DNA of 64,000 nucleotides from an uncultured Pseudomonadales bacterium (GCA_964386355.1 CAYLQQ010000006.1:2088-66087), one strand, 5' to 3'. Shown: positions 10,619 through 62,474, counted from the first letter of the stretch. Translations and numbers: made by a program. Notes: a model not told the origin generated them from the sequence alone.

Positions 10619-10755
10619 TCTATTTTATGATTTATATAACCTAGTCTTCAGTGCCAATATTGTTTAATAGAGTCTTCCAAATTTCAATTTCTTCAGAACT
10701 AAAAATATTATTTGGTGATTTTTTTCCAATTATAAATAATACGTAATACGAGATA

Positions 10756-11505: not shown

Positions 11506-11615
11506 ATAAATTCAAATGACAAATGACAATTCAAATTTAAAATCTATAAGATGAATTTTATATTTTGTAATTGATTTGATATTTGTTATTTGATGTTTGA
11601 TATTATTTAAAATTT

Positions 11616-39123: not shown

Positions 39124-39167
39124 ACTATCTCAAATTCCCATATATATTTCAATCCTGCTATACTTAT

Positions 39168-43876: not shown

Positions 43877-43906
43877 AAGCCCTCTGAAATCAGAGGGCTT
43901 TTTTTA
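43877..43906 (+). terminator. Rho-independent terminator
   Basis: Stem gccctctga / tcagagggc with a 3-nt loop, followed by ttttttt. Confidence 0.7.
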
Positions 43907-43971
43907 TGCTCAACTATTCACTGTTTAGAAAGAATAGTATAATAAATTACGTAATAAAAACGTATACTCCT

Positions 43972-47700: not shown

Positions 47701-49969
47701 CCCTTCTGTAAGAACTGATACTTCAGGCCGTGCCGTACTTCGTTTCAAGCTGCCGGATAACCTGACTACGTGGGTATTATCTGCAGTTGGAGATACACAA
47801 GCAACTACTGTCGGACAAACACGAAATGAAATTGTAGTTTCCAAAGATGTCATTGTTCGCCCATTCTTACCAAATATCATTCGTGAACAAGATGATCTGG
47901 CAATTCTAACCCTGGTTCAAAACTTTACTGATCAGGATCATAGTTTTGATATCAATTTATCTTTTGACTCAGGTGATGTTAGAGATGCGACAAAATCAGC
48001 AGTTTTTATCAAATCAAAAGAGTCTGTTGAGGTTACATGGCAGGTAAAGGCAACTAAAGTTAATCCTGATTCTAAACTCCGTTTTTCTGCTATTGCTACC
48101 GATAACTCTAAACTGCAGGATGTGATCACTCAACAGATACCTGTCCACGCATATGGGTATTTAGAAACCCGGGGTGAAACAGGTTATGGCGATGCGTCAT
48201 TTAAACCAGTACTCGCAAAAGACAGCAGCCCAGAGAAATCCTCCGTTACCCTATCACTCTCTCCTTCACTAGTCGGAATGTTGCCTACAGCAATGCAGTA
48301 CTTAGTTGATTACCCGTACGGCTGCGTAGAGCAAACCACGAGCCGTCTCATGCCTGTGTTGCAAGCTAAACAAAACCCTGAACTCTTTGCGGATGTAATC
48401 AAAGACAAAAATCTTGATGAAATGGTTAACAAAGGATTGGATCGTCTGAGAACTCTGCAGTACTTTGATGGTGGTTGGAACTGGTGGTCATATGGTGAAT
48501 CAAATCCCTTTATCACTGCATATGTTGTTGAAAACCTAGTTCTTGCTAAAGACTTGGGGTTTTCAGTGGACAGTGAAATGCTCCAATTGGCTGAAAGCTT
48601 CTTATCCCGGATTGATAAACAAATTACAGCAGAAGATATGATTCCCAAAAAATATGGCCTTGCCCTGCTTAAATCTGAAACGTATAAAACGTCAAGAAGT
48701 CCTGTCATTGAAAACAGTCCAGATCTTACCGCTCTGGCAGTTATGACAAATTACCTCAATGGAGTGACAGATCCCTCAGAAAACGGTTTGCAAAAACTTA
48801 TTGCAATGGGAAAGGCACAAGGAGATGGTTTGTACTGGGAAGCTGGCAAGAAAGATCGCTTTGCATCCAAAGATGCCTCAACAGCTCTGGCTTTACGGGC
48901 AATTCTTTTGGCGGGCACGGATGCTGATAGGGAAATAGCAGTCAAAGCTGCACGGTACTTAACCAAGCAACACCGTAGTCACTACTGGTCAAACACCTAC
49001 AGCACAGTGCAGGTTATACGCGCAATTACTGCCCTTGCCAATACTGATAACGAAGCTAATCCAAACTATACGTATTCGGTAACCCTGGATAACAAGATTG
49101 TTAAACAAGGAACAATAAATTCTATTAACCAAAAACCAGTTCAGATTCAAGTTCCCATAGCCAACCTAAAACCCAATGGTTCAGTATTGAGCATTTCTAA
49201 GCAAGGTGAAGGTCAAATATACTCCACATTAGTCACAAAGGAATTTCATACTGATAGAACTGCAAAAGCAATAGATCACGGCATGACCATAACCAGAGAG
49301 TATGTAAATGAAAAAGGAGAGGAATATAGTCTTGGTCTTGGTGATACTGCAATTGTAAAACTGACAATAGGCGGACTCGGGGCTGGCGATTACTATGGCG
49401 TGATCGCTGATGAACTACCCGCAGGACTGATCCCTGTTGTTGAAACTCTAAAAAATGAACAGTACAGAGATACTGGAAGCAGTTCTTATGATTATTATGC
49501 AGGCAGTAAAGAGTATACACAAAATGGTGTAATAATTTCTCTCTACCAGATATTACCAGGAACAAGAACATACGAATACAAAGCAAGGGTCGTTTCTCAT
49601 GGATCGTTTATTGTTCCTCCTGCCACAACGTCTCTCATGTACACACCTGAAATATATGGACAATCAGATGCTTACACGTTAACCATAGACAAAGAATCAA
49701 AAATTATTCCAGGTAAAAAGATCCAGAAAATCATTAAGGATAAAAGCAATTTACGACTAGATGAAAAAGCTAAACTCAAGCTGGGGATAATTTTACTAGT
49801 TGCTGTAATACTGATAATAAGCTTGCTTTTGCTACGTCCGGCTATTAGAAATACGTTTTTATATAAACAGCTTACACAAAAGCTACGTATTCTACGCAGA
49901 AAACAGAATCCAGAAACTATACATTTAGAAGATGATATACAGCAAAATCCGCCCCCTCAGCAACAGTAA
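44789..49969 (+). CDS. Alpha-2-macroglobulin-family surface protein (1726 aa) with embedded Hint domain
   Basis: N-terminal signal/anchor MHQLFSNRLFFSFSFLTIFGL. Long beta-rich region of macroglobulin-like repeats. Thioester motif YPYGCVEQTTSRLMP, with CVEQ at ~48323..48334. Alpha-helical TED-like region (LQYFDGGWNWWSYGESNPFITAYVV). C-terminal TM helix LGIILLVAVILIISLLLL. Residues ~826-954 form an intein-type Hint domain, listed separately. Confidence 0.82.
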   Translation: MHQLFSNRLFFSFSFLTIFGLTNFLPNFKLPFFHTSPSPTPAPHATEMPQTDGDVLGNYRYKPSIHISGGKDSYSTGGLIALSSKEEPSVEISAYNTSGEVQIDVWEADEQAVLEYLTHDKDGKQTKRIESVDRFKFIGTSKADINGSYGRESKALLPLAETGIYFLKISKGDIAEQAFIIRSSFGAVVKEGDDELIFWSQDFDTKRSLQSGTVTTFNLLDNAVEVTSAGIDGQGVAKLPVSENNDIALVKNDGKLAVVPLNLRYLNYGYSYKEFQRKERQNKFFTFTDRPLYRPGDTIYFKSVVRDDDDARYTLPAGNVTVGLYSGWSEEDKISEKTLTFDEFGTVSGDFKLPETAKTGDYHVKINLTERIYSNSYFQVEHFRKPEYSIDVNIPKTTYISKDEMVFTISGSYFSGQPLANQAVKYRVFSGDYYQYEYYDETDAYFLNEDYRYGNWWGNSSEQSSMTVTLNHLGKADVTLKLDNNSNRNRVYSIEAEFDNGSGNPSFVRKNMLVYAGEYDLYRKDYHSYYGSLSQPLDLPLRLVSHVNQPVSNIDLHTNIEVTNWVEERVPEEKYPRYRKVVETVPSISSKTDNQGYATFSFQPTKTGSYTFHVIGTDKRGNTISKDFYAYVTDKNYPYFSSEQDTGLSLQLDKKEYNPTDTATLSIFSNIPNRDIFLTFERNRVNRYQVLSLEGTNGSVEVPLFDTDMPNIYPTLTSFSDDNIDRVSENLKVSTVSKQLQVRIQTDKPSYGPGEVVTARLETSDMAGNPQSADVALWAVDKALFELVSENPKKISETFWSERYANTSTAHSLEGITANVAEMGGCFTAGTQILLANGTSSPIESIKPGDVIKTRKSETNSALVKAKVSSVHIATVSGILKINNNLEVTPEHIVWLNGRWQEIGNAQIGDLLFDRQGKKVQIASIEWLSGKRTVYNLEIENRHTYFANSVWVHNQKGGGGRTVFKDTAYWNPSVRTDTSGRAVLRFKLPDNLTTWVLSAVGDTQATTVGQTRNEIVVSKDVIVRPFLPNIIREQDDLAILTLVQNFTDQDHSFDINLSFDSGDVRDATKSAVFIKSKESVEVTWQVKATKVNPDSKLRFSAIATDNSKLQDVITQQIPVHAYGYLETRGETGYGDASFKPVLAKDSSPEKSSVTLSLSPSLVGMLPTAMQYLVDYPYGCVEQTTSRLMPVLQAKQNPELFADVIKDKNLDEMVNKGLDRLRTLQYFDGGWNWWSYGESNPFITAYVVENLVLAKDLGFSVDSEMLQLAESFLSRIDKQITAEDMIPKKYGLALLKSETYKTSRSPVIENSPDLTALAVMTNYLNGVTDPSENGLQKLIAMGKAQGDGLYWEAGKKDRFASKDASTALALRAILLAGTDADREIAVKAARYLTKQHRSHYWSNTYSTVQVIRAITALANTDNEANPNYTYSVTLDNKIVKQGTINSINQKPVQIQVPIANLKPNGSVLSISKQGEGQIYSTLVTKEFHTDRTAKAIDHGMTITREYVNEKGEEYSLGLGDTAIVKLTIGGLGAGDYYGVIADELPAGLIPVVETLKNEQYRDTGSSSYDYYAGSKEYTQNGVIISLYQILPGTRTYEYKARVVSHGSFIVPPATTSLMYTPEIYGQSDAYTLTIDKESKIIPGKKIQKIIKDKSNLRLDEKAKLKLGIILLVAVILIISLLLLRPAIRNTFLYKQLTQKLRILRRKQNPETIHLEDDIQQNPPPQQQ
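47264..47650 (+). other. Intein-like Hint / bacterial intein-like (BIL, A-type) domain inserted in the A2M protein
   Basis: 129 aa. Block A CFTAGTQILLANGTSSPIESIKPGDVIKT begins with Cys and is closely similar to canonical intein N-termini. Block B LEVTPEHIVWL (T..H). Block F/G VYNLEIENRHTYFANSVWVHN ends in His-Asn. There is no endonuclease domain. The +1 residue is Gln, not Cys/Ser/Thr. Flanks are Gly-rich (EMGG | ... | QKGGGG). Confidence 0.75.
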
Positions 49970-50873
49970 GCTAGTAGTATTAATTGTGATAAGTGCCGTA
50001 TGTCTTGGACTTGCGTTCATCTTGTTTTGGTCAAGCAAGTTCGAAGATATTGAGCAAACTAGTCTTCAAGCCAGGGTTCCTGCATCCTCTTTAAACAGTA
50101 AATACTATGACCTGACAGATATGGATACCAGTGAGTTTACTTCATACCTTAAAGGGTTAACTCAAAATCCCGAGCAATTAAAATATCCTGTTTCTGGCAT
50201 TGTTGTGCCGCACCATTTGCTTGCCGGAAGCCTAATTGCCCGGATACTGCAGCAAACTTCATTTCAAAATCCACGTACGGTGCTTCTTATTGGGCCTAAC
50301 CATTACGAAGCCGGAACTTTCGGTCTGATAACGAGTAATGCTGGATGGAAAACACCGTTTGGTCAGGTTCTACCTAACCAAACATGGATTGAACTACTTA
50401 CACAAAGGGGGGATGTGTATACTAATAATGATGTCATGCTTAAAGAACATGCTATATCGGGACTCATACCCTTTATCAGTTACTTTTTTCCTTTCGCTAG
50501 CCATACACCTGTAATTGTAAGTAGTTTTACACCCTTACAAGATATTGATTTATTATCTTCAGTAATTGCACAAAATCTTGATCAGAACACAATCCTTATT
50601 TTATCTCTTGATTTCTCGCATTATCTCAATAGTGAACAAGCTACTGATCGAGATTCAGTCAGTTTACAAGCAATTACAGGTTTTGATTATGAAAAAATTG
50701 CCAGATTTACCAATGAGTATGTTGACAGTCCGAAAAGTTTAAGACTGTTCTTAAAAGTTATGCAGCAAAGAGGTAAAACAAATATTACTGTTATTGACCA
50801 TACAAACTCAGGAAATATCACAGGAAATATTCACAGTGAAAATACGAGTTACTACACGCTGACATTTCACTAA
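49932..50873 (+). CDS. Memo-like protein (MEMO1 / AmmeMemoRadiSam protein B family) with N-terminal membrane anchor
   Basis: 313 aa. The start overlaps the A2M 3' end by 38 nt. TM helix LVVLIVISAVCLGLAFILFW. Memo-like motifs GIVVPHHLLAG and LLIGPNHY. Confidence 0.55.
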   Translation: MIYSKIRPLSNSKLVVLIVISAVCLGLAFILFWSSKFEDIEQTSLQARVPASSLNSKYYDLTDMDTSEFTSYLKGLTQNPEQLKYPVSGIVVPHHLLAGSLIARILQQTSFQNPRTVLLIGPNHYEAGTFGLITSNAGWKTPFGQVLPNQTWIELLTQRGDVYTNNDVMLKEHAISGLIPFISYFFPFASHTPVIVSSFTPLQDIDLLSSVIAQNLDQNTILILSLDFSHYLNSEQATDRDSVSLQAITGFDYEKIARFTNEYVDSPKSLRLFLKVMQQRGKTNITVIDHTNSGNITGNIHSENTSYYTLTFH

Positions 50874-50928: not shown

Positions 50929-52653
50929 ATGCCTACCCTACATCACCTTTTTACCCTCAAGCTTGGCGGGGCCGCTGGCCAGGGAATTAAATCGATTGGC
51001 CTCACTTTCTCCAAGATCTGTACCCGTAGCGGATACCATGTCTACAATTATACTGAATATCCCTCTTTGATCCGTGGTGGTCACAACATGATGCAGACCA
51101 CAGTCAGTCCCGATCCAGTTAACTCGCCTACCTTACATACCAGTTTACTGATTGCCCTCAACCAGGAAACAGTAGACTTACATCATAAAGAGATGGTCGA
51201 TGGGGGTATCATCATGTTTGATAAAGATTCCGGCATTGCAGCAGATGGGGTTGACCCTAAAGTCAAGATTGTAGCTATACCGCTTGTTAAACTTGCTGAA
51301 GAAGTTGGAGGCAAAGCTATCATGGCCAATACAGTAGCCATGGGTGCAACCATTGCCCTTCTAAAGGGTGAATTACAGCTTCTCAAAGACCTCTTAACGC
51401 ACGAATTTGCAGACAAACCACAAGAAATAACTGAGGTTAATCACAAAGCAGCTCAAGCCGGATACGATTATGCTTTAGAGCATTTTAGTAACCTAGTGCG
51501 CGAGGTTATTCCCCAGCGCCAGGACCAGCCAAAACGCATGATGATCAGCGGTAACGAAGCTTGTGCATTTGGAGCTATCGCAGCTGGAGTCCAATTTGCA
51601 GCTATGTACCCCATGACCCCAGCGACAAATATTTTACACAACATGGCTCCTCATCAAGAAACATTTGGATTTGTATATAAACAACCGGAAGATGAGATAG
51701 CGGCTTTGCAAATGGCTATAGGTGCAGCTAATGCCGGCGCCCGCTCAATGACTGCCACCTCAGGTGGAGGTTTCTGTCTAATGACAGAGGGTGTTTCACT
51801 TGCTGGTATGACCGAAACACCAGTCGTCATTTTTAATGTCATGCGTAATGCCCCGGCAACTGCTATGCCCACATGGTCCGAGCAGGGAGATTTACGCCTC
51901 GTTTTACACGCTGGACACGGAGATTTCCTGCGCATTGTCCTGGCAGCAGGTGATGCCAAGGAGACATTTGAACTAACTCAGCAAGCTTTTAACCTGGCTG
52001 AAAAATACCAAACTCCAGTGATTGTTCTCACGGATAAGCTTAGCGCTGAAAATGATCAGAGTTTTGAACCGTTTGACAATTCTGATTATGAGGTTAGTAG
52101 AGGTAAGTTCACTACCCATAAGATCCCTGACTACAAACGTTACGAGCTGACAGATGAGGGTATTTCACTTCGCACTCCTGTTGGGTCGGACAACTTTTTT
52201 ATAGCAAACTCTGATGAACATGATGAAGAGGGGTTTTCTATTGAGGATATTAAAATGAGGAGTGCTCAGATGGAAAAACGGAACCGGAAATTTAAAACAT
52301 GTATGCATGAAGATATGCCTAAGCCTACTCTCTATGGACCTAAAGATGCTGACGTAACTATTGTTTCCTGGGGTTCCAATAAAGGAGCTATTATTGACGC
52401 GCTTACATACTATCCTAACGTCAACTACCTTCATTTAACCTGGATCAATCCTTTTCCATCTGAAGCTGTCAAAGAAGTGCTGAATAGTGCTAAATACGTT
52501 CTTAATATTGAACAAAATTACTCAGGCCAAATGGCAGGCTGGATAGCTGAGCAAACAGGTATTAGAATCCTGGATAACCTTCTAAAATATGATGGCAGAC
52601 CGATATATCCTGAAGAGGTGATGGCAAAGCTGGATAGTATATTGCATAAATAA
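50929..52653 (+). CDS. korA: 2-oxoacid:ferredoxin oxidoreductase, alpha subunit (fused gamma-alpha, KorA-type)
   Basis: 574 aa. N-terminal gamma-like domain, then the alpha domain with GNEACAFGAIAAGVQFAAMYPMTPAT (the conserved YPITPxT region). Confidence 0.82.
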   Translation: MPTLHHLFTLKLGGAAGQGIKSIGLTFSKICTRSGYHVYNYTEYPSLIRGGHNMMQTTVSPDPVNSPTLHTSLLIALNQETVDLHHKEMVDGGIIMFDKDSGIAADGVDPKVKIVAIPLVKLAEEVGGKAIMANTVAMGATIALLKGELQLLKDLLTHEFADKPQEITEVNHKAAQAGYDYALEHFSNLVREVIPQRQDQPKRMMISGNEACAFGAIAAGVQFAAMYPMTPATNILHNMAPHQETFGFVYKQPEDEIAALQMAIGAANAGARSMTATSGGGFCLMTEGVSLAGMTETPVVIFNVMRNAPATAMPTWSEQGDLRLVLHAGHGDFLRIVLAAGDAKETFELTQQAFNLAEKYQTPVIVLTDKLSAENDQSFEPFDNSDYEVSRGKFTTHKIPDYKRYELTDEGISLRTPVGSDNFFIANSDEHDEEGFSIEDIKMRSAQMEKRNRKFKTCMHEDMPKPTLYGPKDADVTIVSWGSNKGAIIDALTYYPNVNYLHLTWINPFPSEAVKEVLNSAKYVLNIEQNYSGQMAGWIAEQTGIRILDNLLKYDGRPIYPEEVMAKLDSILHK

Positions 52654-52750: not shown

Positions 52751-53581
52751 ATGATTGACAATATCGTAGAATCTAATCAACTAAGCGATCTCCAAGTCGA
52801 TTCACCATCTGTTCCCAATCTTCAAAAACAAAACCGATTACTTAAGATCATCCTTACAGTAATCTCTCTGCTTTTTATTTCTACATTAGCAACACTAGTT
52901 CTCCTTGTTTTCCTAACAAAAAAAGATAAATCAAATACTCAGTTGCCAACTGCTGAACTCACTCAAGCCACAACTCAACCAACTATTCAAGGCCTTTCTG
53001 AAAATGAAGTACCTAGTGATTGGAAAACGTATGCGAATAAGGATTATAAATACCAGATTCAATGTCCTTCAACTTCAATTCATCATATTCAGGTTACCCA
53101 GGGTGATGGTACTAATATCCCATATTTTCAAGAGATTTGTTATGAAAAGACTAATCAAGTTACTATCAGCATAAAAAACGAAAAAATCTTACCTGATCTA
53201 GTTACTTTAACTAATAAGTTAAAAGGTACATCTCTAATACCAGAAAACTATAAAAGTTTCTCAATAAACGATAAAAAGGGTATTCAATACAACACAGTAA
53301 ATAATTCAGGTCAAATTGAGGCGTATATTGTTGAAGTAATAATACCAAATTCTAATACAGACTCAAAATTACTCCTTAGAGGCTTTAATAAGGATTATTT
53401 TGATCAGATTTTATCTACATTAATGTTCTTTAATGAGAAGCAAATTATATCTATACCAACTCAAAAAAACTCAACAATGATTAGTTACACACTGCCTTCA
53501 GGCTGGACAACTGCAAATGAATCTCCCCGCCGCCAAGCGGTCGGGGTATCTCAAGGATTTAATTCTTTTATAACAAGGTAA
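52751..53581 (+). CDS. Hypothetical membrane-anchored protein inserted between korA and korB
   Basis: 276 aa. TM helix LLKIILTVISLLFISTLATLVLLVFL, then a Thr/Gln-rich linker and a beta-rich extracytoplasmic domain. No motif. Confidence 0.45.
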   Translation: MIDNIVESNQLSDLQVDSPSVPNLQKQNRLLKIILTVISLLFISTLATLVLLVFLTKKDKSNTQLPTAELTQATTQPTIQGLSENEVPSDWKTYANKDYKYQIQCPSTSIHHIQVTQGDGTNIPYFQEICYEKTNQVTISIKNEKILPDLVTLTNKLKGTSLIPENYKSFSINDKKGIQYNTVNNSGQIEAYIVEVIIPNSNTDSKLLLRGFNKDYFDQILSTLMFFNEKQIISIPTQKNSTMISYTLPSGWTTANESPRRQAVGVSQGFNSFITR

Positions 53582-53745
53582 CGACGCAAGCGTCGAGGAA
53601 TTAAACCTTAAGAGAGATTAATACTGTTAACAGTTTTGAGCTTGGGTATGATGCAAATACACATTCTGCCGATACCACAACATTTCCAAATAATATTACT
53701 ATATTTTTAAAAAACACCCGGCGTGCATCACCATTTTCAGTTGGA

Positions 53746-54018
53746 TTGTTTGATTATGACGGAAGTTCACGACATTCCTTTATTTATAAACAGATGAATG
53801 TTGAACCTACAAAAGGTGATGCTCCTGATAAATATAAAGAGGTTGAATATATATATAATGATCGTTCTTGTTTGGTTTTGGAAAACATGTATTACTCACA
53901 ATCTCCCACAGTCTGGGGAATGTGTGATGCCGGGAATGGGAAAGCATTCCTGTTCACATCTTACATTACGGGGACTAACGATTATTTACAGTGGTTACAA
54001 ACTGTTAAAGTCAAGTAG
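53746..54018 (+). CDS. Small hypothetical protein (90 aa, TTG start)
   Basis: Track ORF MFDYDGSSRHSFIYKQMNVEPTKGD... with a non-ATG start and an overlapping alternative-frame ORF at 53798..54070. Only one can be real, and possibly neither. Confidence 0.25.
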   Translation: MFDYDGSSRHSFIYKQMNVEPTKGDAPDKYKEVEYIYNDRSCLVLENMYYSQSPTVWGMCDAGNGKAFLFTSYITGTNDYLQWLQTVKVK

Positions 54019-54091
54019 ACTATTTTCTGGCTTTATACTTTCTCTCCAATCCGATATACTAAAAGATTAGTTAACATACATATTCCTGCCT

Positions 54092-54949
54092 ATGAATCTG
54101 CAAGACCTTACTACTCCATGTCAGCCAAACTGGTGTCCCGGATGCGGAAACTTCGGTACCTGGACTGCATTTAAACAAGCAGCAGTGAAAGAAAATTGGG
54201 ATAACAGTAATACCGCTATCGTTGCAGGTATTGGTTGCCATGGACATCTGGTTAACTTTACCAAAATGACGTCGATAGAGGGCTTGCATGGCAGACCTAT
54301 TCCTGTTGCAACCGGTATCAAGCTTTCAAATAATAAACTTAACGTATTTGTGTTTACCGGAGACGGAGACTGTCTAGCTGAGGGCGGCAACCACTTTATG
54401 CACACGTGCAGACGCAACCATGACTTAACGATTGTATTACACGACAACGCTATATATGGGCTCACTACAGGTCAAAGTTCACCACGCACGCCTTTAGGCT
54501 TTAAATCAAAATCAACACCGCTGGGAAATATTGATGTCCCTCTTAACCCTTTGGAGGTTGCCATAGCTGCCGGAGCAACGTTTGTTGCCAGAGCATTTTG
54601 TATGGATATCCCTCAGCTAACGGAGATTATGATTGCAGCAAATAATCATAAAGGAATAGCAGTAATCGATATTTTGCAACCTTGTCCCTCATTTACCCCC
54701 GAACTGACACCACAATGGTACAAAGATAACTGTTACTATGTTGACCAAAGTTATGACAAAACAAACAAGCTGGAAGCTCTGGAAAAAGCTATGGTATGGG
54801 GAGAAAAACAAATCGCTTGTGGTATCCTGTATGAAAATCCTAAACAGAAGTCTTACGAAGAACTGATACCATGGATAAATGAAAAAGCAATTGTAGATAC
54901 AGCGCCAACCAAACGGGATGTATCAGCACTATTTAGTAAATTGATGTAA
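54092..54949 (+). CDS. korB: 2-oxoacid:ferredoxin oxidoreductase, beta subunit (TPP-binding, KorB-type)
   Basis: 285 aa. N-terminus TPCQPNWCPGCGNFGT (Cys motif of the OFOR beta subunit). TPP-binding region GDGDCLAEGGNHF. Confidence 0.85.
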   Translation: MNLQDLTTPCQPNWCPGCGNFGTWTAFKQAAVKENWDNSNTAIVAGIGCHGHLVNFTKMTSIEGLHGRPIPVATGIKLSNNKLNVFVFTGDGDCLAEGGNHFMHTCRRNHDLTIVLHDNAIYGLTTGQSSPRTPLGFKSKSTPLGNIDVPLNPLEVAIAAGATFVARAFCMDIPQLTEIMIAANNHKGIAVIDILQPCPSFTPELTPQWYKDNCYYVDQSYDKTNKLEALEKAMVWGEKQIACGILYENPKQKSYEELIPWINEKAIVDTAPTKRDVSALFSKLM

Positions 54950-54968
54950 AAACTTATAAGGTACATCC

Positions 54969-55898
54969 GTGACCAAAGGATTAATCACTATGAACAAAGG
55001 AATACAACTTGCCATGCTGACTGCAGTTATTTCTGGATTTTCAATTTTTATCAATAAATTCGCTGTTGATTCTATTAAGCCGGCCTTAACGTTTACAGCC
55101 AGTAAAAACGTAATGGTTGCGGTCGCTATCATATCCCTATTATTTCTGACAAGAAAGTGGAAAAAGGTTCTAAGCCTCAAAAAGGATGAGCAAACCAAGC
55201 TTGGACTGATTGCTCTTATCGGCGGTTCCCTGCCATTTTACTTATTTTTTACAGGTCTATCTCAAATCCCAGCTATTAACGCAGCTATTATCCAAAAAAC
55301 GCTGGTTCTGTGGGTAGCCCTGCTCGCAATACCTTTTTTAAAAGAAAAAATTACCAAAATCCAAATTCTGGCTGTTGCCATTCTCTTTGGATCAAACATT
55401 ATGGTTGGTGGTTTTAAAGGTTTCTCATATTCAACTGGAGAACTAATGGTATTGGGAGCAACTATTTTGTGGGCAATCGAAAATGTGATTGCAAAAAAAG
55501 TTTTATCTACAGTCGATCCGGATATTGTCACCGCTGCCCGTATGGGTATGGGAAGTATAATTCTATTTACAGCATCTATGATTATAAACCCGAATACTAT
55601 TTCTAGTCTTATAAGCCTGTCTTCAATACAATGGATGTGGCTATGGGTCACCGCTATTGCTCTGTTTGCCTATGTATCGGTTTGGTATCGCGCACTCAAA
55701 CACGCACCAGCAATTACTGTCACTGCCGTACTTGTCGCATCAACTCTTGTAACAAATATTCTCACAGCTACATTTATTACCCATACATGGAAAGAAGATT
55801 TTACAAAACAGGGGTTTTTGATGCTACTAGGAATTGCTTTACTGGTATGGCAAGCAAGACAATCTCAGGATAATATCAAGACAATTACGCAATCGTAA
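54969..55898 (+). CDS. EamA/DMT-superfamily transporter
   Basis: 309 aa with 10 predicted TM helices in two 5-TM repeats. The start may be the second Met at ~54990 (MNKGIQLAMLTAVISGF). Confidence 0.65.
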   Translation: MTKGLITMNKGIQLAMLTAVISGFSIFINKFAVDSIKPALTFTASKNVMVAVAIISLLFLTRKWKKVLSLKKDEQTKLGLIALIGGSLPFYLFFTGLSQIPAINAAIIQKTLVLWVALLAIPFLKEKITKIQILAVAILFGSNIMVGGFKGFSYSTGELMVLGATILWAIENVIAKKVLSTVDPDIVTAARMGMGSIILFTASMIINPNTISSLISLSSIQWMWLWVTAIALFAYVSVWYRALKHAPAITVTAVLVASTLVTNILTATFITHTWKEDFTKQGFLMLLGIALLVWQARQSQDNIKTITQS

Positions 55899-56715
55899 TC
55901 GAATTCAGAAGATCATTCGTCCAGTATACAAGATTTTGCTTTTCTTCTTTGGTCAGTTTTTTTGCTATCCAACCCCAATGAAGTGCCACCTCATCGTTAT
56001 TAGCTATTTCACCTATTACATCAGGATAGTATGCAAACTCTTTGGTAACATCATGCAATACATACATATCTTTTTTACGCCCAATCTCAACAGTCTCAAC
56101 TTTTATAAGTTGATAGTTGTTCAGTATTGAACTGGTACTTAATTCTTTTTGAATTTTTTGTCTATTTATTTGAGGATTGGTTAGTACTTTACCCCACCGT
56201 ATCATGCAGTTATTTATGGATTCCAGATTAAAGGGCACAGAACCGCTAGCCTTACCAACCCCTATATGTAATATGTTAAATAGATGTATGGGTATAAATT
56301 TTTGTGGTTTTTTATCTATAATTTCTTGGATAAGGAATTCCGGTACACCCTGTTTTATTAAGTGTTTCAGCAAAATATTATAATGTTCTGATTCAATATG
56401 CTTCAATATGTCATTACCTAGCCAGTAAGCTTCAACCACCTCATATGAAAAGGGATCTTTGCCAGTAATTTCTGCAATTGTTTGTAAGTACGGATTTAGA
56501 ACAATAAATTGCTTTAACTCCTCCTGAACACTGGTACATTTACCCCCTTGAATACATCGCACAAGTTTTGCGGGCGCGCTCTCTTGACCGCAATAACCCA
56601 GCATATTGGGTTGTAGGGCAAAATGGGAGCAGAGTTGCAGAGCTTTAATATTCATACTACATGCTACTATATCAGTATGCCTAAAAAAATCTATATCTTC
56701 GGTAATCCTGACCAC
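55885..56715 (-). CDS. Hypothetical protein
   Basis: 276 aa, soluble, several Cys near the N-terminus (CSMNIKALQLCSHF...CGQES...CIQGGKC). Unassigned. Confidence 0.4.
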   Translation of the reverse strand: MVRITEDIDFFRHTDIVACSMNIKALQLCSHFALQPNMLGYCGQESAPAKLVRCIQGGKCTSVQEELKQFIVLNPYLQTIAEITGKDPFSYEVVEAYWLGNDILKHIESEHYNILLKHLIKQGVPEFLIQEIIDKKPQKFIPIHLFNILHIGVGKASGSVPFNLESINNCMIRWGKVLTNPQINRQKIQKELSTSSILNNYQLIKVETVEIGRKKDMYVLHDVTKEFAYYPDVIGEIANNDEVALHWGWIAKKLTKEEKQNLVYWTNDLLNSITIA

Positions 56716-57072
56716 ATCCCTGACGCACTACCTTACGAATTTGTCCATGAAATTCAAAACTCGCTGCCGAATCTTGTAATCGTATATGTCAAACCCAATG
56801 AAGACCTGCCGTTTGACAACCATGAACATGCCGTACTGATTGATACAGTAGTTGGAATTACAGATATTACTATAATTACTGATGAAAATATTGATAAGAT
56901 TCAACTTCCGCCCCGTTATTCAGCTCATGATTTTGATTTAGGTTTCCAACTTAAGTATTTAAAAAAATTAGGAAAAATTGATTCATTCTTAATTATTGGT
57001 ATACCCATGGGTTTAGATAAATCCCCAGTAGCTGTTAATAGAATTATAAGTCTTATAATTAAGGCTAGTTAA
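56677..57072 (+). CDS. Hydrogenase maturation protease-like protein (HybD/HycI family, divergent)
   Basis: The likely start is the ATG at 56677 (MPKKIYIFGNPDHIPDALPYEFVHEI); the track begins at 56623. The pattern IxxGN...D.......L, a later Asp, and a His (SAHDFDLG) parallel the HybD metal-binding residues. The canonical GDDGxG is absent. It lies next to the hydrogenase genes. Confidence 0.45.
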   Translation: MPKKIYIFGNPDHIPDALPYEFVHEIQNSLPNLVIVYVKPNEDLPFDNHEHAVLIDTVVGITDITIITDENIDKIQLPPRYSAHDFDLGFQLKYLKKLGKIDSFLIIGIPMGLDKSPVAVNRIISLIIKAS

Positions 57073-57081
57073 ATAAGAAGT

Positions 57082-60000
57082 TTATCTCTTCCTCTTCCCT
57101 AAGACAGCCATAGCTCCAATAGCTGCTATGGCTAGGAGAATACCAATCAGCTGGACATAGACTGGTACAAAACCAGACTTTGGAAGCTCAGGTGCTTTAG
57201 GAACGGTTGGACTGCAGCTGCAGTCATTCTCTTTAGGACACTCTACGTTCACACATTTACTCTCACCTTCTACACTACGGCACACAAGAGGACTTTGACA
57301 CTGCGCATTGACTGAGCAGCTGTGATAACAACTGTAGGGAGGTGTAGCTTGAGGAACAGGACTGGGGTTGGGGGTTGGCGTGGGTGTGATAGTTGGAGTT
57401 TGCACTGGAGCGTTTGATACTACACACGATACTCCTTGTCTGTAATAACCCTGAGTACAGATATACGTACACCTTACATCACCCGTACAGGCATCTGCAA
57501 GCCTCACAGCAGTATTAGCAGTAAGACCAGCCAAATAGTTGGAACAGGGTTGAGAATGAGCTGGAACAGAACCTATACAGGTGTAGGACTGGGACGGAAG
57601 TTGACAACTACCACTAATGAGCTGATAACCAGAATTACAGGTATATTCACATTTTCTGTTTGCAGTACAAGCTGGGACAAGAGTTTTGGGTAAATTAGCA
57701 GTAAGGCCCTGTGAGTCGCCTGAGCACAGTTGGGCATAGGTTGGGGTTTGACCAGTACAGGTAAAGTCTATGCCTCCGCTACTGGGAATACAGGTCCCAC
57801 TGCTGCAGCTGGTACCAGTAGCGCAGGGTGCCTGGTTTACCCAACGGTTACTAGTACATAATTGGGGAATACCAGTTGTACTGCACCGCATTGATCCGTT
57901 ACTTGGACAGTAGTTTTCAATTGTCATACAAATACCATTGCCTGTGCACTCCTCACCCTGGGAACAGGCTACAGCTGATTCCCAGGCTGTTCCTTGAGTG
58001 TTACATACTTGATAGCTGGATTGGGAAGCACAGCGTTTCTGCTGAGGGGTACAAACAGAACCTGAGACAGGAACACAGGCACCATTCTCACACACCTGTG
58101 ATGAAGTACAGGAATTCTGGTTTGTCCACTGATTGTTAGTACAAGTTTGAGGAGTATTGCCTGTACAGCGGGGAGCACTACCACTGGCACAGTAGTTGGG
58201 AATAGCTTGGCAGGTAAATGTAGTAGTAGAACAGACACTTCCTGATGTACAAGTACTAGACACTACCCATCCCTTACGATCACTACTACAAGTTTCAATA
58301 TTCCCGTTACTACATCGTTTGGCTCCACTACTGCATGCATAAGAGTGGCAACTCCCAGATAAGCAGTACGTATCAGACTGGGTACAGTCTGTTCTTGTCA
58401 CCCACTGATTGTTAGTACAAGTTTGAACTATGCTACCCTGACAACGGGTAGCGTTTGTAGTACAAACGAAAGGAGTTGGATTAGATGTGGGAGTTAGAGT
58501 GGGGGTAGGATATGGAGTATTACCCGAATAAATCGGAACATTTGTCAACATTGCTTTATTTAAAAAACCTGGACAAAACCCAACTCCATATTGTGCCACA
58601 TTAATCTCTGATGATGAGCAGTTCGGATCCTGATCAGTAGGGTTAAAGTAATACTGATTACTAGACAAACCATTACCTACAGATACAGGAGGATCAGTAA
58701 AGAAACTACTTTGAAGACATAGGTAACTACTCTTATCTGAAACAATCCCACCTTTTATGGCGTTAATTATTGCTTGTTTTCCATCTTCCTCTTTTCCTTT
58801 CCAGTAAATTAATTTTGAAAAATTATTGGGATGATCTGGCTCATATCCATGAGCTCCTACGTTTTGATACCTACTGAAATTACCATTTTGCATCTTAGAG
58901 TCCCGCGGTCCCCAGCCATTAAACTTTAACCAAATGTTTGATTGATATGTTGAATCCATCCAAATTTCAAGTATTTTCCCAACCCTGCCAGTTGCAGACA
59001 ACCCATTGCCTCTTTGCCATACCACAGGAGTTGGCGCGAAGATTTCTACGTAGCTAGTTATGATCTGCTTCATTGCCTGAATAAAGTAATCATCAAACAC
59101 AAAGCATTCTGAATTATTCACTGAATCCAAAGGACATTTGAGCTGGTCAGATTCTGTACATACCTCAACTTTATTTCCAGGTACTAAATTACTAGGATTA
59201 CACGTGCTTCTCTTAGCAACAATATCGCTGGCTACTTGTTGGACTGAAAGAGTGGGATAATGTTGTTTTTGTACATATTTTGCCAGCGACAAAACTGCCG
59301 GACAATCTGGATTAAGTACGTCAGGCAAGCAGCTGCAACTTGGATTTTTGCGAGAGGGGTCGCAGTAGGCTGGACATTTTGAGCTTAAAACACATTCGCC
59401 TGACTCACCACCCGACATCATTTGAATAGCTTCAACTACCCCATCATCAATATCCTGTTGAAACTCCTGTTTCATAGCCCGTAAGGCATTAGCATAGTAG
59501 TCTTGAAATAAGGGATCCCATACGGCAGCAATTTTTGTCGGGAACTGAATATGGGTAGTGCCTTCTGGTGGAGTTGTACTGCCTGAAGCTGGTAGAGTCA
59601 ACTCAGTAAAGCTATTACTTCCTGGTGATGTCTCTTTTAAATACTTAGCTTCGCTAACATCAACAAACTGAGAGTTTGGCCATACAGGTTTAACGCTATT
59701 TTTAAGGTTATTAGGGTCATACCATACGTAACGTGACTTGTTGCGGTAGACGTTTAGATCTCCGCACCCGGCAGATATATACGTTTCTATTCCTTTATTT
59801 ATTGCCCACTTAGGGACATTATGTTCTTTATTTGACTTATCCCCTACTTGAATTTGAAGCATTACTTTCTTACCTAAAGACCTCGCCTTATCTACCTCAC
59901 TTCGTTTCTGGCTAAAATTATATGTCCCCTCTTGTGGTTCGATAGCTGCCCAGCTATCACCAGCACCATTACTAAAATCAAAGTACGTGGAGGATGAATA

Positions 60001-60213
60001 ACCCCATCGTATACCACTATTTGTATTAAATGATCCATATGTACCGTGACATTGACCTAAGCCTAAGCCTTGATTAGCTTGATAAAAGATTTCTGCTTGT
60101 TTGCTTCTAAATTGCGAAATACCTATCGATATACCAAGTATAATCACACTTGCTATGAAAATATATATAGAAATCAGCTGCTTAATTGGTGATAACGGAG
60201 ATATTTTCTTCAT
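57082..60213 (-). CDS. Large surface protein: N-terminal anchor, GH-clan-A-like glycosidase domain, tandem Cys-rich repeats, Pro/Thr linker, LPKSG sorting signal
   Basis: 1043 aa. N-terminal TM IYIFIASVIILGISIGI. WAAIEPQEGTYNF matches the WxxxEPxEGxYxF pattern of GH42/GH35-type TIM-barrel glycosidases. There are about five ~45-aa repeats of CxxxxxRCxxxxxQxCTNNQWxxxxxCxxxxxCxxGxC plus two longer Cys repeats containing GLTAN. Linker PVQTPTITPTPTPNPSPVPQATPP. C-terminal LPKSG, then a hydrophobic helix and KRKR tail. Confidence 0.7.
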   Translation of the reverse strand: MKKISPLSPIKQLISIYIFIASVIILGISIGISQFRSKQAEIFYQANQGLGLGQCHGTYGSFNTNSGIRWGYSSSTYFDFSNGAGDSWAAIEPQEGTYNFSQKRSEVDKARSLGKKVMLQIQVGDKSNKEHNVPKWAINKGIETYISAGCGDLNVYRNKSRYVWYDPNNLKNSVKPVWPNSQFVDVSEAKYLKETSPGSNSFTELTLPASGSTTPPEGTTHIQFPTKIAAVWDPLFQDYYANALRAMKQEFQQDIDDGVVEAIQMMSGGESGECVLSSKCPAYCDPSRKNPSCSCLPDVLNPDCPAVLSLAKYVQKQHYPTLSVQQVASDIVAKRSTCNPSNLVPGNKVEVCTESDQLKCPLDSVNNSECFVFDDYFIQAMKQIITSYVEIFAPTPVVWQRGNGLSATGRVGKILEIWMDSTYQSNIWLKFNGWGPRDSKMQNGNFSRYQNVGAHGYEPDHPNNFSKLIYWKGKEEDGKQAIINAIKGGIVSDKSSYLCLQSSFFTDPPVSVGNGLSSNQYYFNPTDQDPNCSSSEINVAQYGVGFCPGFLNKAMLTNVPIYSGNTPYPTPTLTPTSNPTPFVCTTNATRCQGSIVQTCTNNQWVTRTDCTQSDTYCLSGSCHSYACSSGAKRCSNGNIETCSSDRKGWVVSSTCTSGSVCSTTTFTCQAIPNYCASGSAPRCTGNTPQTCTNNQWTNQNSCTSSQVCENGACVPVSGSVCTPQQKRCASQSSYQVCNTQGTAWESAVACSQGEECTGNGICMTIENYCPSNGSMRCSTTGIPQLCTSNRWVNQAPCATGTSCSSGTCIPSSGGIDFTCTGQTPTYAQLCSGDSQGLTANLPKTLVPACTANRKCEYTCNSGYQLISGSCQLPSQSYTCIGSVPAHSQPCSNYLAGLTANTAVRLADACTGDVRCTYICTQGYYRQGVSCVVSNAPVQTPTITPTPTPNPSPVPQATPPYSCYHSCSVNAQCQSPLVCRSVEGESKCVNVECPKENDCSCSPTVPKAPELPKSGFVPVYVQLIGILLAIAAIGAMAVLGKRKR
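57085..57186 (-). other. Cell-wall sorting signal (LPKSG + hydrophobic segment + KRKR)
   Basis: C-terminal ELPKSGFVPVYVQLIGILLAIAAIGAMAVLGKRKR has the tripartite architecture of sortase substrates, with a variant pentapeptide LPKSG. Confidence 0.5.
57300..58480 (-). repeat. Tandem coding repeats (Cys-rich CTNNQW-type modules) within the surface protein gene
   Basis: Repeated protein modules (CTNNQWVTRTDC..., CTNNQWTNQNSC..., CTSNRWVNQAPC...) are visible in the translation. The nucleotide level shows corresponding diverged repeats (e.g. repeated cccactgattgttagtacaagtttg at ~58120 and ~58400 on the plus strand). Confidence 0.5.
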
Positions 60214-60258
60214 CTATACCTACTATAGTAGAGGAAAAGTACATCTAGCACAAATACC

Positions 60259-61560
60259 TTACTTTCTGTCCCACTCGATTTTTAGAAAGTTTGTAGCGCA
60301 GGACATGCAGGGATCATAGGCGCGGACAATCTGCTCTGCTTCCAGTTTTAAAATTGCCTCCTCTTTATGAAGATTCTCATTAAAATATTTTTTTAGGTCA
60401 TTTTCGATATTAATCTGATTTTGGGAAGTAGGTACAATCACATCATAATCTACAAGAATACCATTATCATCAGTCTTAGCCATATGGTATAAAATCCCCC
60501 TAGGTGCTTCAACCACTCCCACTCCAATACCAGCTTTATGAGTAGGTTGGGCTGGCTTTTCATCAGTAATACTGATATCTTTAAGAATATCAATAGCACT
60601 ATCAACACTATTTAAAATTTCTATTGCCTGAGCTAGATTGTTGTCATAAATATTGTCTGAGGGGAAAAATCCCAGATACTGACTAGCATCACGCCTAGTG
60701 CGCTCGTGCAGTTGATCCCGGTTAAGGTTTAGCCTGGCAAGAGAGCCTACTAAATAATCATCATGTTTGCTTGCCAATTTGTAACCTTCAGCATGTGAAT
60801 AGGGAATTACAACTTTTTCCAGCATTTCATAAAAATTCTGTTCGGGAACACAGAGCCCGTCGGTAGTTGTAATATCCCCGTTAATATAATCCCATCCCTG
60901 CCTACCTCGTAAACACATGTAGTCACTATTTCGTTTAAACTCAGCTTTCCAGTCATAAAAGACTCCAATACCCCTAATCACCTGAGGCCGCACCGCTTCC
61001 AATCTGTCGATAAGTGCCGGAAACTGACTACTATCTGGCTGCTTTAGAAAACCTCCTACTGTCGGTAGAGGGGCATGTATAGCAGCTCCGATAATGGCAT
61101 TGGCTATATCACTCCCCAAGCGCTTAATATCAAATGAGTCGTGCAAAAGCTGGTGACCCTTGTCATCAGAACTATCAGGAATATCCAAAATTGAATCAAT
61201 TCCCAGTACATCCGGTAAAACAAAAAAGTATAGATGTAGGGCATGATCGCGGATCATGAGAGCATCATAGGCCAGATGGCGTAGTAATTTCGTCTGCTCT
61301 GAAATTTCTATGCCCATGGCTTTTTCTATTGCTTCCAAAGAGGCAAACAGGTGGGAAACCGAGCATGTCCCGCATATGCGGGATAAAAATTGTGGAGCAG
61401 CCACTGCGGGCTTTTTTTGGACAGCTTTTGTGTAAAAGCGCCTGTAATCCTGGATAAAAAATTTTAGGTCCGTTACTGCACCATCTCTCACAGTAACTTT
61501 CATTCCTGCAGAGCCTTCAATTTTTGTAATCTGGTCAATCGTAATATCGCCTGAATGCAT
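60259..61560 (-). CDS. [NiFe]-hydrogenase large subunit
   Basis: 433 aa. N-terminal L1 motif RICGTCSVSH (RxCGxCxxxH). C-terminal L2 motif DPCMSCATNF (DPCxxC), followed by a short tail LKIEWDRK. The canonical His/Arg after the second Cys pair is Asn here. Confidence 0.82.
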   Translation of the reverse strand: MHSGDITIDQITKIEGSAGMKVTVRDGAVTDLKFFIQDYRRFYTKAVQKKPAVAAPQFLSRICGTCSVSHLFASLEAIEKAMGIEISEQTKLLRHLAYDALMIRDHALHLYFFVLPDVLGIDSILDIPDSSDDKGHQLLHDSFDIKRLGSDIANAIIGAAIHAPLPTVGGFLKQPDSSQFPALIDRLEAVRPQVIRGIGVFYDWKAEFKRNSDYMCLRGRQGWDYINGDITTTDGLCVPEQNFYEMLEKVVIPYSHAEGYKLASKHDDYLVGSLARLNLNRDQLHERTRRDASQYLGFFPSDNIYDNNLAQAIEILNSVDSAIDILKDISITDEKPAQPTHKAGIGVGVVEAPRGILYHMAKTDDNGILVDYDVIVPTSQNQINIENDLKKYFNENLHKEEAILKLEAEQIVRAYDPCMSCATNFLKIEWDRK

Positions 61561-61646
61561 GAATTAGAAATTAGGAATTAAGAATTTGGAATTATGGTTT
61601 TAAAAAACATCCATAATTCAGTATTCATTCTTCATAATTCATTTTT

Positions 61647-62150
61647 TTACTCAATTACTCCACAAATTTTCAAATACTTATTTACACCTGCTAAAAACAT
61701 GTCCTTATTCATTGGACAGCCCGGTACCTTATCATCTACCGTAATCACTTCGTCCAGCTTTTTTACTTTTGAAGCATAATCAAATCTGGCAAAATAATCT
61801 CGTATTTTGTCATCTATTTTCCCTTCAGCTTCAAATGAGTTACGTGATGCGCTGGGCATACCGGACACGGCACAGGAACCAATCGCCAGTACGTATTTGC
61901 TATTTGCTCGTATTTCTTTAAGCTCTTCTTCTTTTGATAGTGATGAAATTGCTCCTTCGACAATAGCCAGATCCAAGCCTTCAAGCCGATTATTGGTCCT
62001 CAATGCTTTAATATGCCGAAATTCTACCAAAGGTAACCATTGCAGCAAATAGTCATTGAGAATTTCAGTTAACAGTATTGAGCAGCCTTCGCAGCAGGTA
62101 AACGAGAAGAGACCAACCACTAATTTCTTTTTTGGGACAACTTCAGACAT
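61647..62150 (-). CDS. [NiFe]-hydrogenase small subunit (minimal, proximal-cluster only; NuoB-like)
   Basis: 167 aa. Four Cys in spacing typical of the proximal [4Fe-4S] cluster (FTCCEGC ... GSCA ... GCP). No Tat signal and no medial/distal cluster domain. Confidence 0.72.
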   Translation of the reverse strand: MSEVVPKKKLVVGLFSFTCCEGCSILLTEILNDYLLQWLPLVEFRHIKALRTNNRLEGLDLAIVEGAISSLSKEEELKEIRANSKYVLAIGSCAVSGMPSASRNSFEAEGKIDDKIRDYFARFDYASKVKKLDEVITVDDKVPGCPMNKDMFLAGVNKYLKICGVIE

Positions 62151-62255
62151 AGTATCATTATCGGTAATTTATCCCTGTTTGTGAAGGGGTAAATGGGATA
62201 CAATCGCTGGATAGCGCGAATGATATTCAATCTCTTATATTCGTATAACCATCCT

Positions 62256-62474
62256 ATGTGCCTAGCCATTCCAGGCCAAATAATCAATATCGCCGGCCGA
62301 AAAGCAACCATTAAGTACCCAAATGTTATCAACTACGCTTTAATCTCTGATGAGAACGTGTCAGTAGGTGATTGGGTACTAGTGCAAATGGGAATTATTA
62401 TCCAGAAGTTGGATGCAAATGAAGCTGATAAACGTATAAGTAGTTGGCAATCTCAACCTACCACCAAGGATTAA
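62256..62474 (+). CDS. hypC: Hydrogenase maturation factor HypC/HybG
   Basis: The likely start is at 62256 (MCLAIPGQIINI; Met-Cys N-terminus is the HypC hallmark). The track ORF begins at 62193. Confidence 0.78.
   Translation: MCLAIPGQIINIAGRKATIKYPNVINYALISDENVSVGDWVLVQMGIIIQKLDANEADKRISSWQSQPTTKD

Follow-up and report, generated by a model that had tools for sequence, protein, structure and literature searches.

A two-subunit [NiFe] hydrogenase of the hyd2 type with a C-terminal asparagine, and its candidate redox and maturation partners

How is a [NiFe] hydrogenase supplied with electrons and matured when it has only two subunits, an altered C-terminal processing site and no electron-transfer subunit beside it? 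The question is raised by positions 60259-62474 of a 64,000-nucleotide stretch of DNA (here the window) from an uncultured Pseudomonadales bacterium (GCA_964386355.1, CAYLQQ010000006.1:2088-66087). Translation, Pfam and NCBIfam identify three real genes in this interval, which encode the large subunit, the small subunit and the chaperone HypC. An earlier account made from the DNA alone (the sequence-only reading) had presented the two-gene organisation and the C-terminal asparagine as an oddity, and had left open the hydrogenase group, the electron partner and the mode of processing. That oddity dissolves on comparison. Both features are shared by a published subgroup, hyd2, and the locus is ordinary in kind: a new member of that clade whose 'non-canonical' features are the clade norm. 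Our preferred reading, to which we assign a probability of roughly 60%, is a cytosolic, ferredoxin-linked, H2-evolving fermentative hydrogenase of the hyd2 clade, descended from group 3b and with a processed C-terminal tail.

Group assignment and clade membership

The large subunit matches Pfam PF00374 at 99.6 bits (cut-off 25.8). It ranks highest against the NCBIfam models sulfhyd_HydA (222 bits, cut-off 880) and ShyA (200 bits, cut-off 700), followed by VhuA (group 3c), FrhA (group 3a) and then group 1 models; the NCBIfam scan gave no match to group 4 or NuoD models. The best PDB matches are Thermococcus kodakarensis HyhL (5yxy, E 4e-59) and the alpha subunit of Pyrococcus furiosus soluble hydrogenase I (SHI), with values ranging to 8e-53. 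Against HydD, the 3b delta subunit, the small subunit reaches 63.7 bits, versus 31 bits against NuoB. By these comparisons the enzyme belongs to group 3 and is nearest to 3b, and, because all scores lie far under the equivalog cut-offs, it is a distant 3b relative and not an SHI orthologue. The alternative between '3b-like' and '4-like' posed earlier is largely settled in favour of the former. A group 4 affinity was rejected, as both subunits score best against 3b and the cluster has no membrane subunits.

The 3b enzymes SHI (HydADBG; PDB 9nez, 9e15) and HyhL share about 35% identity with the window enzyme, as estimated from alignments. They have the same cytosolic fold, the same L1 and L2 cysteines and the same proximal ligands in the N-terminal domain of the small subunit. 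They differ in being heterotetramers with an FNR-like gamma, an Fe-S beta and a 261-residue three-cluster delta subunit, whereas the window encodes a heterodimer; their L2 motif is DPCISCSVH with a 4-residue tail (VVRL), compared with Asn and a 9-residue tail here. Group 4 enzymes of the Ech/Mbh type resemble the window enzyme in their short single-cluster small subunit and in the role proposed below, reoxidation of ferredoxin reduced by 2-oxoacid:ferredoxin oxidoreductase (POR). They are, however, membrane-bound with NuoH/L-like subunits, none of which occurs here, and group 3 models score much better.

We identified 4429 homologues of the large subunit at E <= 1e-5. The best 120 are 433-442 residues long and 67-100% identical, and the named ones among them are from Patescibacteria, such as Beckwithbacteria, Daviesbacteria and Uhrbacteria; the database sequence nearest to the window large subunit has 88% identity. 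The window protein carries KIEG at residue 13, RICGTCSVSH, EAPRGILYH (EAPRG at 351) and DPCMSC at 416-421. The corresponding KIEG, RICGTCSV[AS]H, EAPRGxLYH and DPCxSC cysteines are invariant in 120/120 of the closest homologues, as are all the presumed metal ligands and the catalytic Arg and Glu. The large subunit is thus likely an active hydrogenase.

Jaffe et al. (2020, PMC7304191) describe, in the passages drawn on here, two 3b-related subclades specific to the Candidate Phyla Radiation (CPR). In the first, hyd1, beta and gamma subunits are present and the small subunit has about 250 residues. The second, hyd2, forms a long branch related to 3b and has a truncated small subunit (mean 164 residues), a hypC-like family nearby and no proximal beta or gamma subunits; its 'function remains uncertain'. 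The window locus matches every feature stated there for hyd2 (a small subunit of 167 residues, hypC nearby, beta and gamma absent nearby) and on these features is a member of the clade. We find no structural difference from the published description; here the partner cluster is broken by three insertions. The C-terminal Asn, the adjacent endopeptidase, DUF6390 and the conserved redox gene cluster treated below are unmentioned in the same passages, and the word 'maturation' has 0 occurrences in the main text of that paper.

Comparisons of gene content were based on 78 loci retrieved from species-representative genomes with flanks of +/-10 kb, among them 58 hyd2 and 17 sister-clade loci. Counts are given as loci with the gene over loci with enough flank. 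A small plus large subunit organisation was found in 46/47 hyd2 loci.

The G+C content of the window is about 40% and its nearest named relatives are Patescibacteria, yet the same clade also occurs in high-GC metagenome-assembled genomes of Rubrobacteraceae. Seven Asn-type hyd2 loci (63-74% identical; L037, L038, L042, L050, L053, L070, L076) lie on contigs that are labelled Rubrobacteraceae or Rubrobacter and have a GC content of 58-66%. These loci contain only the small subunit, large subunit and protease genes, set among unrelated genes and without the POR cluster. Since these three genes alone are carried, they define the core of the system, and the pattern suggests lateral transfer of this core out of CPR.

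The small subunit

The small subunit begins with MSEVVPKKKLVV and has no twin-arginine motif. Pfam detects Oxidored_q6 only. As stated earlier, a Tat signal and a medial/distal cluster domain are lacking. The protein aligns to residues 3-151 of the 261-residue P. furiosus HydD, and Cys20, Cys23, Cys93 and Cys145 all match the proximal [4Fe-4S] ligands of HydD. The length and the single proximal cluster proposed earlier therefore stand, and the number of cysteines does not: there are six (19, 20, 23, 93, 145, 163), not four. Small subunits of relatives are 162-176 residues long, and those of the classical 3b loci L072 and L075 are 259-265 residues long with 16-17 cysteines. Judged by these alignments, the subunit is a truncated 3b type that has lost the medial/distal cluster domain and kept the proximal [4Fe-4S] cluster.

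Small subunits of similar size (about 180-190 residues) occur in group 3d HoxYH (5xf9) and in the bifurcating NiFe-HydSL of A. mobile (7t2r), to which the window protein has weak matches (E 3e-8 and 2e-6). Both have the proximal cluster only, and both dock onto large NuoE/F/G-like diaphorase modules. No NuoE/F/G-like diaphorase gene occurs in the window, and none belongs to the genes that recur beside hyd2. HydB/HydG-type beta or gamma genes are likewise absent beside the small and large subunit genes, both here and in the 58 hyd2 loci.

The C-terminal asparagine, the tail and the protease

Translation bears out the earlier description of the large subunit: 433 residues, an RxCGxC site and DPCMSCATN with a 9-residue tail, in which Asn replaces His or Arg. 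This Asn is found throughout the clade. The motif DPC[MVI]SC[AS]TNF is present in 120/120 of the closest homologues, and Asn occurs in every retrieved locus at least 61% identical to the window whose C-terminus was readable. It is also confined to the clade. We searched 50%-identity cluster representatives exhaustively and read the position that follows DPCxxCxx in the nearest 150 clusters: it is His in 125, Arg in 4, Pro in 1 and Asn in 4, and the four Asn clusters are hyd2 itself or hyd2 fragments.

At 45-49% identity there is a sister group that reads DPCMSCA[TSA]H and then a like tail (FLKINW...), and whose small subunits have 163-176 residues. Its members come from Peregrinibacteria, Parcubacteria and the DPANN archaea Woesearchaeota, Nanoarchaeota and Iainarchaeum. 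The tail FLK[IVLM]x[WL] is conserved in hyd2 and in its His-bearing relatives. Read from the cluster counts and from a His-bearing sister group with the same tail, the Asn goes back to one substitution of His that became fixed on the hyd2 stem, in a lineage that already possessed the FLKxxW tail and a truncated small subunit.

Many classical 3b-like large subunits (L072, L075 and about 30 of P0361-P0510) have no tail: the His of DPCxxCxxH is their last residue. C-terminal processing is therefore dispensable in part of the 3b-like group.

A protease gene adjoins the large subunit gene in 52/52 hyd2 loci and 16/17 sister loci. The window protein falls under the 23-bit cut-off of Pfam HycI (PF01750; E 0.002, 18.4 bits), and 26/28 orthologues match this family (best E 9.4e-7), many of them with a precomputed PF01750 annotation. 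Its AlphaFold2 model has a mean confidence (pLDDT) of 81.6, and the top PDB matches of the model in Foldseek are HybD (1cfz), an E. coli endopeptidase (2kml), 3pu6 and HycI (2e85), with probabilities of 0.99-1.00 and a template-modelling score of about 0.6. All 28 orthologues share G9, N10, D16, D56 and H84. An hhalign alignment places D16/D56/H84 on D16/D62/H90 of E. coli HycI, but with weak statistics (E 0.28), and an hmmsearch of the protease-family profile against PDB sequences returned nothing relevant. Two Asp and one His have been proposed to bind nickel in the metal-binding cleft of maturation proteases (PMC12134894).

The protein thus shares with HybD and HycI the alpha/beta/alpha fold and the positions of Asp/Asp/His. 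It differs in its low identity (15-19%), in the replacement of the GDDGxG loop and in a presumed substrate with Asn, not His or Arg, at P1. On the strength of the model, the neighbouring gene appears to encode a genuine HybD/HycI-type maturation endopeptidase with putatively nickel-dependent cleavage. The adjacency of a protease with this fold and triad makes it likely that cleavage of the tail persists, with Asn424 now preceding the cut. Theodoratou et al. (2000) are reported to have found E. coli HycI tolerant of many substitutions at its cleavage site. The processing mode that the sequence-only reading had called open can therefore be largely answered, and its identification of a divergent protease without GDDGxG, 3.2 kb from the large subunit, was correct.

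In this genome the two genes are separated. Most relatives have a protease gene that starts about 1.3 kb past the start of the large subunit gene (offset 3.6 kb here) and converges with it, such that the last ~20 codons (…IHSIFKKLVAQDIQGS) are antisense to the large-subunit DPCMSCATNFLK codons; an example is L001, with the protease at 11242-11643 against 10001-11302. The window retains a relic antisense open reading frame (ORF) at 60101-60319 (+), opposite 60259-60321 (-), which ends HSIFRKFVAQDMQGS. The window protease itself is separated from the large subunit and has a C-terminus that differs from those of its relatives. It lies 3 kb away because a gene for a 1043-residue surface protein has been inserted between the two. 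We considered whether the antisense overlap could force the Asn codon and rejected this idea, as a His codon would make no stop on the other strand.

The inserted 1043-residue protein, for which Pfam gives no match, has Cys-rich repeats, an N-terminal membrane segment and, at the C-terminus, a sortase-signal-like tail (LPKSG + hydrophobic + KRKR).

Conserved neighbourhood and likely electron partner

The sequence-only reading had noted that no redox partner flanks the hydrogenase. This holds for the immediate flanks and fails for the wider neighbourhood, where a conserved cluster contains candidate partners. The gene order in L001 (Daviesbacteria) and L002 (Patescibacterium) is hypC, small subunit, large subunit, protease, DUF6390, EamA, ferredoxin, POR beta, POR alpha, FNR-like flavoprotein and ADP-forming acetyl-CoA synthetase (ACD). 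ACD is absent from L002, where the FNR-like gene is directly upstream of POR alpha, and is fused to the FNR-like protein in L001. About 70-85% of relatives have the FNR-like/POR/ferredoxin/ACD cluster together with the hydrogenase (Table 1), and the electron partner, also called open before, is largely answerable from it. The FNR-like gene, which had been flagged as a candidate, belongs to this cluster and is its most consistently linked redox partner (30/36 loci). It is 16 kb away in this genome because inserted genes have pushed it off. The Daviesbacteria fusion of ACD and FNR-like domains (L001:18028-20904, 958 residues) ties the flavoprotein to the POR/ACD pathway.

This association leads us to propose the following scheme. 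POR would oxidise pyruvate and reduce a small soluble ferredoxin, and the hydrogenase would exchange electrons with this ferredoxin through its exposed single proximal cluster and release H2. ACD would make ATP while the reducing equivalents exit as H2, and the FNR-like flavoprotein would link the same ferredoxin pool to NAD(P)H. We infer from the shared neighbourhood that ferredoxin is the direct partner and that catalysis runs towards H2.

Three insertions spread the cluster in the window: an alpha-2-macroglobulin gene with a Memo-like gene, an unannotated ORF of 276 residues, and the surface protein gene. The alpha-2-macroglobulin (1726 residues, 44789-49969) contains a Hint/intein-like insert at about residues 825-954 (PT-HINT, Vint and Intein_splicing matches), and it and the Memo-like gene (49932-50873) sit between the FNR-like and POR alpha genes. 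The 276-residue ORF (52751-53581) splits POR alpha from POR beta. In 30/43 relatives POR beta and EamA are separated by the gene for a ferredoxin of about 80 residues (CxxAxxC...CP); window positions 53581-54092 and 54949-54969 lack it.

A flavodiiron protein (flavorubredoxin-like, 445 bits; 41346-42530) and a TrmB-family regulator (42522-43307) are encoded between ACD and the FNR-like gene. They may serve in O2 or NO protection of an oxygen-sensitive cluster.

Maturation factors

HypC is supported by PF01455 (61.6 bits) and TIGR00074 (52.2 bits against a 48-bit cut-off). Its gene is divergently adjacent, as previously reported, with the start corrected to 62256 (MCLAIPG) from the ORF start at 62193. 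The window HypC resembles the HypC/HupF family in the OB-fold family signature and in the essential N-terminal Cys2, which is present in 34/34 aligned sequences. HypC proteins linked to hyd2 differ in having Gln (VLVQMG) in the column of E. coli His51 (32/32), a residue implicated in iron coordination (PMC12134894).

The statement that hypA, hypB, hypD, hypE and hypF lie outside the window held up: tblastn with the E. coli Hyp proteins matched only hypC there, and Pfam searches of 39 window ORFs, including those of Hyp-compatible sizes, revealed none of the five. The same tblastn queries recovered hypF, hypD and hypE in L090 and L091 (E 1e-72 to 1e-147) as a positive control.

The DUF6390 protein is a candidate accessory factor. 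Its AlphaFold2 model (pLDDT 91.6) consists of an N-terminal helical Cys-rich domain and a C-terminal OB barrel. An hhalign comparison pairs the C-terminus with the C-terminal half of HypC at 92.6% probability (E 4.5e-7), and the only PDB profile matches are to T. kodakarensis HypC and are weak (E 0.7). A Foldseek search of PDB with the model returned OB-fold matches only and no full-length match. C22, C34, H124, C150 and H226 are invariant; Cys150 is located at the first strand of the barrel, and His226 (VAVHWG) aligns with the His of the VHxG motif in T. kodakarensis HypC. The protein is thus akin to HypC/HupF and to second HypC-like factors (HupF/HoxL) in its C-terminal domain, with the VHxG histidine kept, and departs from them in an added helical Cys-rich domain of about 150 residues that has no detectable relative. 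We found no relevant literature on DUF6390 or on hyp genes in CPR/Patescibacteria.

In the maturation scheme that we propose, HypC, probably with the HypC-like DUF6390 protein, would deliver the iron moiety. After nickel insertion, the HybD/HycI-type endopeptidase would remove FLKIEWDRK and leave Asn424 as the new C-terminus.

Sister loci L056, L060 and L063 encode a HypC-HydE fusion and HydG directly upstream of the small and large subunits. The fusion protein (419 residues) joins a HypC domain (1-65) to a radical-SAM HydE (TIGR03956, 267 bits, cut-off 254.6), and HydG is full-length with a CX2CX22C C-terminus (TIGR03955, 566 bits, cut-off 312). HypC-HydE and HydG also occur together ahead of the NiFe genes on metagenome contigs L084, L085 and L088 (within metagenome loci L082-L088), which brings the association to at least six independent loci. 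The L085 enzyme is an ordinary 3b-like hydrogenase with a 255-residue small subunit. Our literature search on a link between HydG or HydE-HypC and [NiFe] genes returned nothing relevant.

This pair may provide a tyrosine-derived CO/CN route for the [NiFe] enzyme, or it could serve an [FeFe] hydrogenase encoded elsewhere. Hybrid [FeFe]/[NiFe] hydrogenases, a possible relative of these loci, contain a HydA domain (Greening et al., 2024). They were rejected as the reason for the HydE and HydG neighbours, as HydA or HydF domains were found neither among the Pfam-scanned ORFs of L063 and L060 nor, as a HydA-like ORF, at L085 by inspection. A broader proposal is that hyd2-type hydrogenases are matured by a reduced, non-canonical pathway without HypD, HypE and HypF, in which the Gln51 HypC acts with DUF6390, HydG and HypC-HydE of sister and other 3b-like lineages supply CO/CN from tyrosine, and the Asn and the protease are co-adapted. 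We regard this as speculative, and on balance improbable.

Alternative readings

Several points weigh against a ferredoxin-linked, processed hyd2 enzyme. Assignment to hyd2 rests on matching features and not on placement in the tree of Jaffe et al. Synteny is an association, not physical electron transfer; the POR, FNR-like and ACD genes of the window are 6-21 kb away and separated by insertions, and a motif scan and relaxed tblastn located no ferredoxin gene in the 64 kb. The Rubrobacteraceae loci have no POR cluster, so the module can function in other contexts. By tblastn with the E. coli proteins, hypABDEF are absent from the window and from +/-10 kb of the 58 hyd2 and 17 sister loci, and without them nearby, cofactor assembly has no explanation from the loci alone. 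Finally, we found no experimental precedent in the literature for cleavage after Asn. In one alternative reading the Asn blocks proteolysis, the mature enzyme keeps the FLKxxW extension, and the role of the protease homologue is confined to that of a chaperone or a nickel checkpoint. In favour of this, the Asn is confined to hyd2 among the 150 nearest clusters, the extension shows unusually strong conservation, the protease has no GDDGxG loop, and some [NiFe] hydrogenases mature without cleavage (PMC12134894). Strong conservation of the protease fold with a complete Asp/Asp/His triad argues the other way, as does the occurrence of the same tail and the same protease with the His-bearing sister enzymes, and we consider retention of the tail unlikely.

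The electron source allows a further choice. The enzyme could be NAD(P)H-linked in trans, with the FNR-like protein and a small ferredoxin replacing the HydB/HydG diaphorase, and could mainly interconvert NAD(P)H and H2. This overlaps our preferred reading and differs in the main electron source. It draws on the 3b ancestry, on the consistent linkage of the FNR-like gene and on the weak similarity of its product to the 3b gamma subunits HydG and ShyC (E 5e-13 and 2e-11). The flavoprotein, however, has no Fe-S domain, and its gene lies within the POR/ACD operon on the strand opposite to the hydrogenase genes and is fused to ACD in L001; moreover, by established thermodynamics, H2 production from NAD(P)H is poor at the low rates of H2 removal expected. 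We view this as a possibility of secondary rank, somewhat ahead of an uncleaved tail. A canonical tetrameric 3b sulfhydrogenase with beta and gamma subunits encoded elsewhere in the genome is far less probable. Its appeal is that the closest characterised relatives are tetrameric 3b enzymes, but the medial/distal domain through which HydD is wired to HydB is missing from the small subunit, and none of the 58 hyd2 loci has a beta or gamma gene beside the small and large subunits; Jaffe et al. likewise report no proximal ones for hyd2. A non-catalytic relic or an H2 sensor might be imagined from the minimal architecture, the odd C-terminus and the failure to find hyp genes nearby. The invariant metal ligands and catalytic Arg and Glu, the tight linkage to a dedicated chaperone and protease, and a conserved neighbourhood with no signalling partner leave this explanation the least credible of all. 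A ferredoxin-linked enzyme with a processed tail is thus the reading that we retain.

Features of the locus

Table 1. Positions and recurrence of the genes and motifs discussed. Positions refer to the window unless a locus is named; the last column gives hyd2 loci with the gene over hyd2 loci with enough flank.
Feature	Position	Strand	Length, basis or remark	hyd2 loci
[NiFe]-hydrogenase large subunit, hyd2 type (group-3b-related)	60259-61560	-	433 aa; Pfam PF00374	
L1 motif RICGTC, residues 61-66 (Cys63 and Cys66, N-terminal Ni-Fe ligands)	61363-61380	-	translation	
L2 motif DPCMSCATN, residues 416-424 (Cys418 and Cys421)	60289-60315	-	translation	
Asn424 codon AAC	60289-60291	-	position usually His/Arg before cleavage site	
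C-terminal extension FLKIEWDRK, presumed propeptide	60262-60288	-	9 aa; conserved tail, predicted cleavage	
Truncated small subunit	61647-62150	-	167 aa; Pfam Oxidored_q6 only	
HypC chaperone, divergent from structural genes	62256-62474	+	72 aa; Pfam HupF_HypC, TIGR00074	40/47
Divergent HybD/HycI-family maturation endopeptidase (putative)	56677-57072	+	131 aa; Pfam in orthologues, Foldseek, invariant triad	
DUF6390 protein, candidate accessory or maturation factor	55885-56655	-	256 aa; Pfam PF19927 at 105 bits	42/51
EamA	54969-55898		conserved cluster gene	29/45
Ferredoxin				30/43
POR beta subunit	54092-54949	+	Pfam TPP_enzyme_C and PFO_beta_C	28/40
POR alpha subunit	50929-52653	+	TIGR03710, 626.6 bits, above cut-off; Pfam POR, POR_N, PFOR_II	28/38
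FNR-like flavoprotein, FAD_binding_6 and NAD_binding_1, without Fe-S domain	43906-44667	+	Pfam	30/36
ACD	39105-41339	+	Pfam CoA_binding, Succ_CoA_lig, ATP-grasp_5	24/35
Inserted Cys-rich surface-protein gene, outside the system	57082-60213	-	1043 aa; separates protease gene from large subunit	
HypC-HydE/HydG pairs	L063:6796-9428; L060:5520-8194; L056:1049-3666; L085:8001-10740; L088:1-1954			

Implications

What is new here is the finding that the C-terminal Asn is both clade-wide and clade-exclusive, the identification of the protease, the POR/ferredoxin/FNR-like/ACD context that names a likely partner, and the oddities of maturation. The HypC Gln51, the HypC-like DUF6390 protein and the HydG and HypC-HydE pairs matter to specialists if [NiFe] assembly can bypass HypDEF. 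The clade-wide combination of protease, Asn and tail and the conserved POR/ferredoxin/FNR-like/ACD cluster make the questions raised by this locus directly testable: they specify which ferredoxin partner and which cleavage product to look for, and which three to five genes suit heterologous expression. The hyd2 type is abundant in Patescibacteria, as the number of homologues recovered indicates. While the hyd2 passages of the existing literature call its function uncertain (PMC7304191), the hyd2 enzyme is probably the main H2 producer of many ultra-small fermenters.

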